From a virus (lineage: Duplodnaviria; Heunggongvirae; Uroviricota; Caudoviricetes), in the IMG/VR virus record IMGVR_UViG_2851938318_000009, positions 1-42,689 of that record: a DNA stretch of 42,689 nt. One strand, written 5' to 3'. Positions 31,450-31,668 of this stretch are shown piece after piece. The translations under genes and the position numbers were made by a program. Position 1 is the stretch's first letter. The number at the start of each line of letters is the position of its first letter. The notes under the pieces were generated by a model. It saw nothing but the letters and a program-made list of their open reading frames with translations. It had not been told where the DNA came from and did not search any database.

Positions 31450-31601
31450 TATTCCTCCCGGCCGGGATAGTGTATTAAATCAGATATGGAGTGGGCTGGC
31501 TGTAGTCCGGAAGCCTGAATGACACTCGGGGACTACAGCCCAAGAAATGAAAAAAGGCCACGCAGTTGCGCAGCCTGATAAACCCTGGTTAAAATCCACA
31601 C

Positions 31602-31662
31602 GATAACAACACAACAATATCAGTATCTCATGCTATTGCCCGAACCCATTCGGGCATTTTTT
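31602..31662 (+). ncRNA. candidate AgvB-like anti-sRNA (GcvB target mimic)
   Basis: TTGCGC-N18-TAAAAT promoter-like pair, CA-rich AACAACACAACAAUAU stretch, then GCCCGAA-ccca-TTCGGGC hairpin plus U6. Confidence 0.4.
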
Positions 31663-31668
31663 ACCCAT

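Follow-up and report, generated by a model that had tools for sequence, protein, structure and literature searches.

We found that positions 31601 to 31662 on the plus strand of the window, the 42,689-nucleotide stretch of viral DNA analyzed here (IMG/VR record IMGVR_UViG_2851938318_000009), hold a copy of agvB, the gene for an approximately 60-nt Hfq-bound anti-sRNA carried by lambdoid prophages of enterohemorrhagic and related E. coli. We are highly confident of this assignment, including the mechanism that goes with it. The unit is AgvB itself, not merely an AgvB-like element, and it is already known, having been described in 2014. An earlier note, made from the letters of this DNA, had proposed an AgvB-like sponge of the host sRNA GcvB upstream of nanS-p. 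That proposal was borne out by a full-length consensus match to the Rfam model RF02702 and by the identity of the locus to agvB1 of E. coli Sakai. The parts that the note had read, namely TTGCGC-N18-TAAAAT, a CA-rich stretch and a GC hairpin followed by T6, all lie on the plus strand where it had placed them (Table 1).

Table 1. Coordinates of the agvB unit and of the surrounding features in the window
Feature	Position	Strand	Basis or remark
agvB -35-like hexamer, TTGCGC	31566-31571	+	Sequence reading
agvB spacer, 18 nt	31572-31589	+	Between -35 and -10
agvB -10 hexamer, TAAAAT	31590-31595	+	5 nt before the RNA start
AgvB anti-sRNA gene, 62 nt as modeled (Sakai Northern, ~60 nt)	31601-31662	+	Rfam RF02702
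CA-rich 5' variable region, AACAACACAACAATAT, single-stranded	31605-31620	+	CACAACA at 31610-31616
Small internal hairpin, 5 bp, 3-nt loop	31622-31634	+	MFE fold, centroid and Rfam consensus structure
Rho-independent terminator, 8-bp stem TGCCCGAA-CCCA-TTCGGGCA, then T6	31637-31656 (stem-loop), 31657-31662 (T6)	+	
Terminator-like hairpin, 9 pairs, then TTTTTTCATTT	31555-31576, T-run to ~31545	-	Terminator scan
nanS-p-type prophage sialate O-acetylesterase gene, 616 aa	29599-31449	-	Divergent neighbor of agvB
STnc100-family sRNA, full-length	31663-31853	-	RF02076, 143.3 bits against gathering threshold 47
STnc100 terminator	31693-31676	-	Terminator scan
DUF3927 mini-ORF, 43 aa	31897-32028	-	Next to STnc100, on its upstream side with respect to late transcription
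IS1203 copy 1	32288-33501	+	
IS1203 copy 2	37749-38962	-	
DicF sRNA	36570-36621	+	RF00039, 72.5 bits; upstream of dicB/ydfD; known, unrelated to AgvB

The whole window was scanned against Rfam 15 at the gathering thresholds, and five matches were found: AgvB, the STnc100-family sRNA, two ALIL pseudoknots (markers of IS3-family elements) and DicF. The AgvB match reached 96.5 bits against a gathering threshold of 56 (E = 1.3e-17), its alignment spanned positions 1 to 62 of the 62-position model, and all bases equaled the consensus. Both Sakai AgvB copies scored the same as the window copy. When the locus was aligned to published AgvB, a check that the earlier note had named, it proved identical across promoter, RNA and terminator. 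In Sakai prophage Sp10, where EcOnc01a/AgvB1 was placed by Tree et al. (2014, Table S2; PMC4104026), the identity to the window was 100% from the nanS-p start codon through the intergenic region, promoter and RNA to the terminator and its U-tract, and the first difference was a 1-nt indel 3' of the U-tract. The stored text of Figure S4 of Tree et al. gives an AgvB that is 3 nt shorter, CGATAACACAACAATATC; this is a probable text-extraction artifact, and the Sakai genome agrees with the window. A protein-coding reading of the open reading frames at 31480-31617 (-) and 31630-31764 (+) was rejected; neither is annotated in RefSeq.

In an alignment of the window with Sakai AgvB2, EcOnc03 and AsxR, the promoter and the CGAT start did not vary, the 5' region did, and the 3' module was conserved, in keeping with the modular design that has been published. 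The same scaffold could carry a sibling anti-sRNA of the AsxR/EcOnc03 type, directed at a different host sRNA. The promoter and the 3' module are indeed family-wide, and EcOnc03 of Sakai Sp9 barely reaches the AgvB threshold (56.6 bits versus 56), so that a family match could mislead. Because EcOnc03 also just passes, it is the 5' region together with the full score, and not a family match alone, that identifies AgvB. The window's 5' variable region is base-for-base that of AgvB1 (Sp10) and AgvB2 (Sp17) and unlike those of EcOnc03 and AsxR, its score is that of the genuine Sakai copies, and CACAACA is present. The AsxR model, RF02703, gave no match in the window at its gathering threshold, and the 5' region differs from that of Sakai AsxR. 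The alignment refutes the sibling assignment, to which we attach a vanishingly small probability. AgvB is thus distinguished from two close relatives, AsxR (EcOnc02, RF02703; Sp5) and EcOnc03 (Sp9), whose genes share with the window the promoter, the CGAT start and the 3' two-hairpin module, and likewise lie tail to tail with STnc100 and upstream of a nanS-p-type ORF, but whose 5' variable regions differ from the GcvB-type seed of the window. AsxR targets FnrS, to whose terminator loop its 5' region is complementary, and asxR lies just 3' of stx2AB.

We then analyzed the fold of the 62-nt RNA. Its minimum free energy was -13.7 kcal/mol (z = -3.75), and none of 200 shuffled sequences folded equally well. 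In the MFE structure, nucleotides 1 to 21 were unpaired and were followed by two 3' hairpins. The first of these, the small hairpin, is common to all aligned family members and lies within the conserved 3' module; the second is the terminator, in which the terminator scan found 8 pairs, 5 of them G-C. The fold, the terminator scan and the alignment of the four Sakai members all showed the 3' module of approximately 42 nt, made up of the small hairpin, the terminator and the U-tail. Neither the CA-rich 17-mer nor the terminator 26-mer has a second occurrence in the window. Taken with the Rfam E-value and the fold, this places the unit well outside chance. ARN4m1 and ARN5m2 motifs were found at AgvB nucleotides 10 to 27, overlapping the seed. 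Judged by its sequence, the CA-rich 5' region is a putative mimic of a GcvB R1 target that overlaps an ARN-type motif for the distal face of Hfq. The terminator is predicted, by analogy with the AgvB U-tail for which an Hfq-binding analysis has been published (bioRxiv 10.1101/2021.04.25.441314), to supply in addition the 3' oligo-U for the proximal face. Two elements of the locus had been absent from the earlier note: the small internal hairpin and, directly against the 3' end, the convergent STnc100 sRNA.

The pairing of AgvB with GcvB was also investigated, with the E. coli GcvB sequence taken from NC_000913.3. GcvB regulates about 1% of E. coli transcripts, most of them concerned with amino-acid and peptide transport. 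The gcvB gene was present in 5,425 of the 5,426 complete E. coli genomes, in 5,389 of them at an identity of at least 99%. Cofolding paired AgvB nucleotides 3 to 16 (31603-31616) with GcvB nucleotides 71 to 84 in 14 contiguous pairs, and gave the dimer an energy of -92.0 kcal/mol against -75.8 kcal/mol for the two monomers. The 5' region holds CACAACA, the published consensus of GcvB R1 targets (PMC4104026).

Two measures of this pairing were not informative. Duplexfold gave -19.4 kcal/mol for the 21-nt 5' region of AgvB against GcvB, while 17 of 1,000 shuffled sequences and 222 of 3,000 random 21-mers from the window bound GcvB at least as well. Because the controls do equally well, and because full-length duplexfold ignores intramolecular structure, the raw hybridization energy was discarded. 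The longest helix against R1 with G-U pairs allowed was rejected too, since each position of a GU-rich target accepts half of all bases, and hundreds of positions in the window reach a length of at least 14. Watson-Crick-only matching was used in its place. This revealed a 12-nt perfect complement to R1 at 31605-31616, the sole match of at least 11 nt on either strand of the window. The complementarity to R1 that the earlier note had expected of the CA-rich stretch is thus seen both as the 14 predicted contiguous pairs and as the unique 12-nt complement.

The putative agvB promoter was not reported by a generic sigma-70 consensus scan at 31566-31595. The scan missed it because the -35 element agrees with TTGACA at just three of the six positions. 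However, both hexamers are invariant in all five aligned sequences (window, Sakai AgvB1, AgvB2, EcOnc03 and AsxR), and the promoter sequence is that of the Sakai gene with a mapped 5' triphosphate end. Since the promoter is invariant among paralogues and the 5' end has been mapped in published work, the negative scan was not counted against it.

It could be argued that the hairpin at 31637-31662 is only one half of a bidirectional terminator between the moron region of the late operon and nanS-p, and that the CA-rich stretch beside it is incidental. Terminators do stand back to back here, the plus-strand one and that of STnc100 (31693-31676, -), and the consensus scan found no promoter. On the other hand, Northern blot and 5' RLM-RACE have mapped a discrete 60-nt Hfq-dependent primary transcript for the identical sequence, the paralogues keep the same promoter hexamers although their 5' RNA regions differ, and the R1 complementarity is unique in the window. 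We consider a bare terminator extremely improbable, and read the hairpin as the 3' end of agvB.

The identical RNA has been studied in detail, and its Hfq binding and antagonism of GcvB rest on experiments in Sakai and K-12 (PMC4104026, PMC5286369, bioRxiv 10.1101/2021.04.25.441314). In Sakai, no other unannotated sRNA crosslinked to Hfq was as abundant as AgvB (Tree et al. 2014, PMC4104026). The same study found AgvB to be 60 nt long by Northern blot, with a TAP-dependent primary 5' end by 5' RLM-RACE under noninducing conditions, and to be destabilized without Hfq. Co-expression of AgvB relieved the repression of dppA::gfp by GcvB, and compensatory G1 mutations in AgvB, GcvB and dppA restored derepression, which shows direct pairing; gel shifts and a double deletion supported the pairing as well (PMC4104026). 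When both Sakai agvB copies were deleted, dppA translation decreased by 32%, a modest effect, and the double mutant was less competitive in bovine terminal rectal mucus (PMC4104026). Hfq accelerated the annealing of AgvB to GcvB approximately 20-fold, with AgvB using both the distal and the proximal face (bioRxiv 10.1101/2021.04.25.441314).

Taken with the window sequence, these results are consistent with the following course of events. The agvB gene would be transcribed from its own weak-consensus sigma-70 promoter, TTGCGC-N18-TAAAAT, independently of the phage late promoter, and the Rho-independent terminator would end transcription. The unstructured CA-rich 5' end of the RNA would imitate the mRNA sites that R1, the GU-rich seed of the core sRNA GcvB, recognizes. 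Hfq would speed the annealing of AgvB to GcvB, and the duplex would hide R1. With R1 hidden, repression of dppA by GcvB would cease, and probably also that of other mRNAs for amino-acid and peptide transporters, while GcvB itself would not be degraded.

The term sponge used in the earlier note therefore needs to be qualified. Antagonism of GcvB stands, having been published for the identical RNA. The degradative sense does not, as GcvB levels were not lowered by AgvB (PMC4104026), and "seed-occluding anti-sRNA" is more exact. SroC is a useful comparison: it is likewise an RNA that base-pairs with GcvB and relieves the repression of GcvB targets (PMC4474525), but it is processed from a core-genome mRNA and triggers GcvB decay, whereas AgvB is an independently transcribed prophage RNA that blocks the seed without loss of GcvB.

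AgvB might instead act mainly in other ways, by competing for the distal face of Hfq or through other RNA partners, with its effect on GcvB being secondary. AgvB drives dppA mRNA off Hfq in vitro and vice versa (PMC4104026), engineered variants of AgvB anneal to GcvB more efficiently than the natural RNA (bioRxiv 10.1101/2021.04.25.441314), and the in vivo effect on dppA is modest. Against this, the compensatory mutations show direct pairing, AgvB had no effect on DppA when GcvB was absent (PMC4104026), and in vivo, RNase E CLASH yielded 82 unique hybrids of AgvB with GcvB (PMC5286369). We regard a mainly GcvB-independent role as very unlikely, and retain antagonism of GcvB as the function of AgvB.

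The neighborhood of agvB agreed with this identification. On one side lies the divergent 616-aa ORF, whose start codon and the AgvB start are 151 nt apart on opposite strands. Its Pfam domains are DUF1737 (residues 3-50), SASA (66-262) and DUF6645 (467-577), which is the published NanS-p architecture (PMC10462455), and the earlier note was right to call it nanS-p; its RefSeq name is "DUF6645 domain-containing protein." On the other side, AgvB and STnc100 lie tail to tail, their 3' ends abutting at 31662/31663. The same tail-to-tail arrangement with STnc100 is found in Sakai Sp10, Sp17, Sp5 and Sp9 (for AgvB1, AgvB2, AsxR and EcOnc03, respectively), and a 2026 preprint on Pas sRNAs describes AgvB, AsxR and STnc100 as recurrent neighbors in such prophage regions. 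By position, via an estimated offset between record versions, the STnc100 partner is probably the approximately 177-nt Hfq-bound EcOnc06 of Sakai Sp17. The annotated coding sequence ECs_1960 of Sakai, which overlaps the STnc100 region there on the other strand, is probably spurious. The setting in a lambdoid prophage, with a convergent sRNA pair and a conserved phage ORF, fits the published location of AgvB, between the moron site downstream of PR' and a conserved phage ORF. The window is identical to the known AgvB loci (EcOnc01a/b; agvB1 in Sp10 and agvB2 in Sp17; RF02702) in RNA, promoter and terminator, and has the same nanS-p-type and STnc100 neighbors.

The prophage around this locus differs from Sakai Sp10, in which Q-ileZ-argO-ECs_1959 lie upstream of the sRNA pair. 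The window prophage adjoins rspB, lacks Q, PR' and ileZ/argO, and carries IS1203 insertions upstream of the sRNA pair. Positions 28000 to 40000 of the window were 100% identical over the 12 kb compared to E. coli RM9131 (NZ_CP028429.1), isolated from bovine feces in California; the host background here matches that O111-like bovine strain, whereas the Sakai host is O157:H7. Bovine feces are also the niche in which AgvB gave an advantage. The genes for holin, lysozyme, terminase and capsid lie downstream of nanS-p. Beyond the sRNA pair, in the other direction, come the DUF3927 mini-ORF, IS1203, a truncated replication-region ORF, cro/cI, dicB with DicF, and a second IS1203. The two IS1203 copies, members of the IS3 family, are identical and inverted, each with an ALIL frameshift pseudoknot. 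They bracket the immunity and dicB region, and both a replication-region ORF and an exonuclease gene are truncated by them. The prophage has no annotated Q antiterminator, and no tRNA genes were found in the window. The Q/PR' side is missing because of IS1203-associated loss, and any regulation that late-operon transcription across the locus would normally bring has been lost with the degradation of the prophage.

Several smaller observations were made in the same region. The DUF3927 mini-ORF is followed by an ORF with an internal stop, and nothing else is left of the "moron" side before IS1203. Related O111 genomes vary at the IS/Q site, strain 11128 having neither IS nor Q and other strains having Q. 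At 26694-26795 (+), just 3' of a YlcI/YnfO-family gene, a promoter-like TTGAAA-N18-AAAAAT precedes a 9-bp hairpin and T7. This segment gave no Rfam match, and in Sakai Sp10 the identical stretch contains EcOnc11, an Hfq-crosslinking peak (Tree et al., Table S2). The segment probably encodes a second prophage sRNA of approximately 60 to 70 nt.

To further explore the distribution of agvB, we searched genome and phage collections. The 141-nt locus matched 651 of 5,426 complete E. coli genomes, a count that includes sibling anti-sRNAs. The exact AgvB-specific 41-mer was found in 618 of the 5,426; its copy number had a median of 2 and a maximum of 7, and nearly all copies were chromosomal. At an identity of at least 99%, the 41-mer was found in 1 of 50,697 GenBank phage records. 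An exact 29-mer gave no match in a set of one genome per species, which shows absence from the species representatives and not rarity. The same 29-mer was present in 88 IMG/VR contigs. An STnc100-like sequence lay within 400 nt 3' of AgvB at 87 of 87 IMG/VR loci (68 to 100% identity), and a divergent nanS-p-like ORF was present at all 38 loci with enough flank (53 to 99.5% amino-acid identity). The 41-nt promoter stretch, 31560-31600, was identical at 85 of 85 loci with enough flank. Since the IMG/VR loci were chosen by the exact 29-mer, the identity of the AgvB RNA among them is partly by construction, but the identity of the promoter and the divergence of the flanks are not. That the agvB unit is far more uniform than its neighbors suggests recombinational spread or strong constraint.

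These results bear on whether the window copy is alive. Given its surroundings, it might have the sequence of AgvB and yet be a silent relic, untranscribed or an irrelevant passenger in a remnant disrupted by IS elements and deprived of Q. Q, PR' and the tRNA genes are gone from the prophage, two IS1203 insertions are present, and RM9131 has five matches to the 141-nt query, which picks up sibling anti-sRNAs as well; redundant copies may therefore exist. However, the promoter, start and RNA are identical to those of the Sakai gene that gives an abundant Hfq-bound sRNA with a TAP-dependent 5' end. The promoter is also self-contained and invariant across paralogues, and it is identical at all 85 IMG/VR loci while STnc100 falls to 68% nucleotide identity and nanS-p to 53% amino-acid identity. 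A silent relic is in our judgment highly improbable. Because AgvB has its own promoter, the decay of the prophage should not prevent its expression, and we infer that the strain expresses this agvB copy and that it is active there.

The minus-strand hairpin at 31555-31576 raises a further question about the locus. It overlaps the agvB -35 element and sits between the AgvB/STnc100 pair and nanS-p. It was kept in all five aligned family members, the sole variable position of the stem changing from G.T to G-C. The hairpin may stop minus-strand read-through ahead of nanS-p when Q is absent, and it could couple late transcription to the activity of the agvB promoter. In a wider interpretation, AgvB, STnc100 and nanS-p would be kept by selection as a single "mucus-niche" cassette able to outlast its prophage, with AgvB and NanS-p functionally coupled and the minus-strand terminator tying agvB to late read-through. 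This proposal draws on the sequence context: the agvB promoter is as in Sakai although it lies in a remnant without Q/PR', and the neighbors diverge yet are always adjacent (88 IMG/VR loci). We consider it rather unlikely. If it were true, AgvB, acting on peptide and amino-acid uptake, would be coupled with NanS-p, acting on the release of sialic acid from O-acetylated mucin sugars, and the terminator over the agvB -35 element would link AgvB expression to late-operon read-through.

RefSeq/PGAP showed no feature at the AgvB or STnc100 positions in any genome among the matches listed, despite the existence of Rfam models, and AgvB in this prophage is therefore an annotation gap and not a discovery. 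For the mechanism, nothing new follows from the identical copy in an O111-like bovine strain. AgvB exemplifies, in textbook fashion, how a prophage rewires the posttranscriptional network of its host, and the copy described here confirms that the element is common to Shiga-toxin-producing and enteropathogenic lineages and shows that it persists in decayed prophages.
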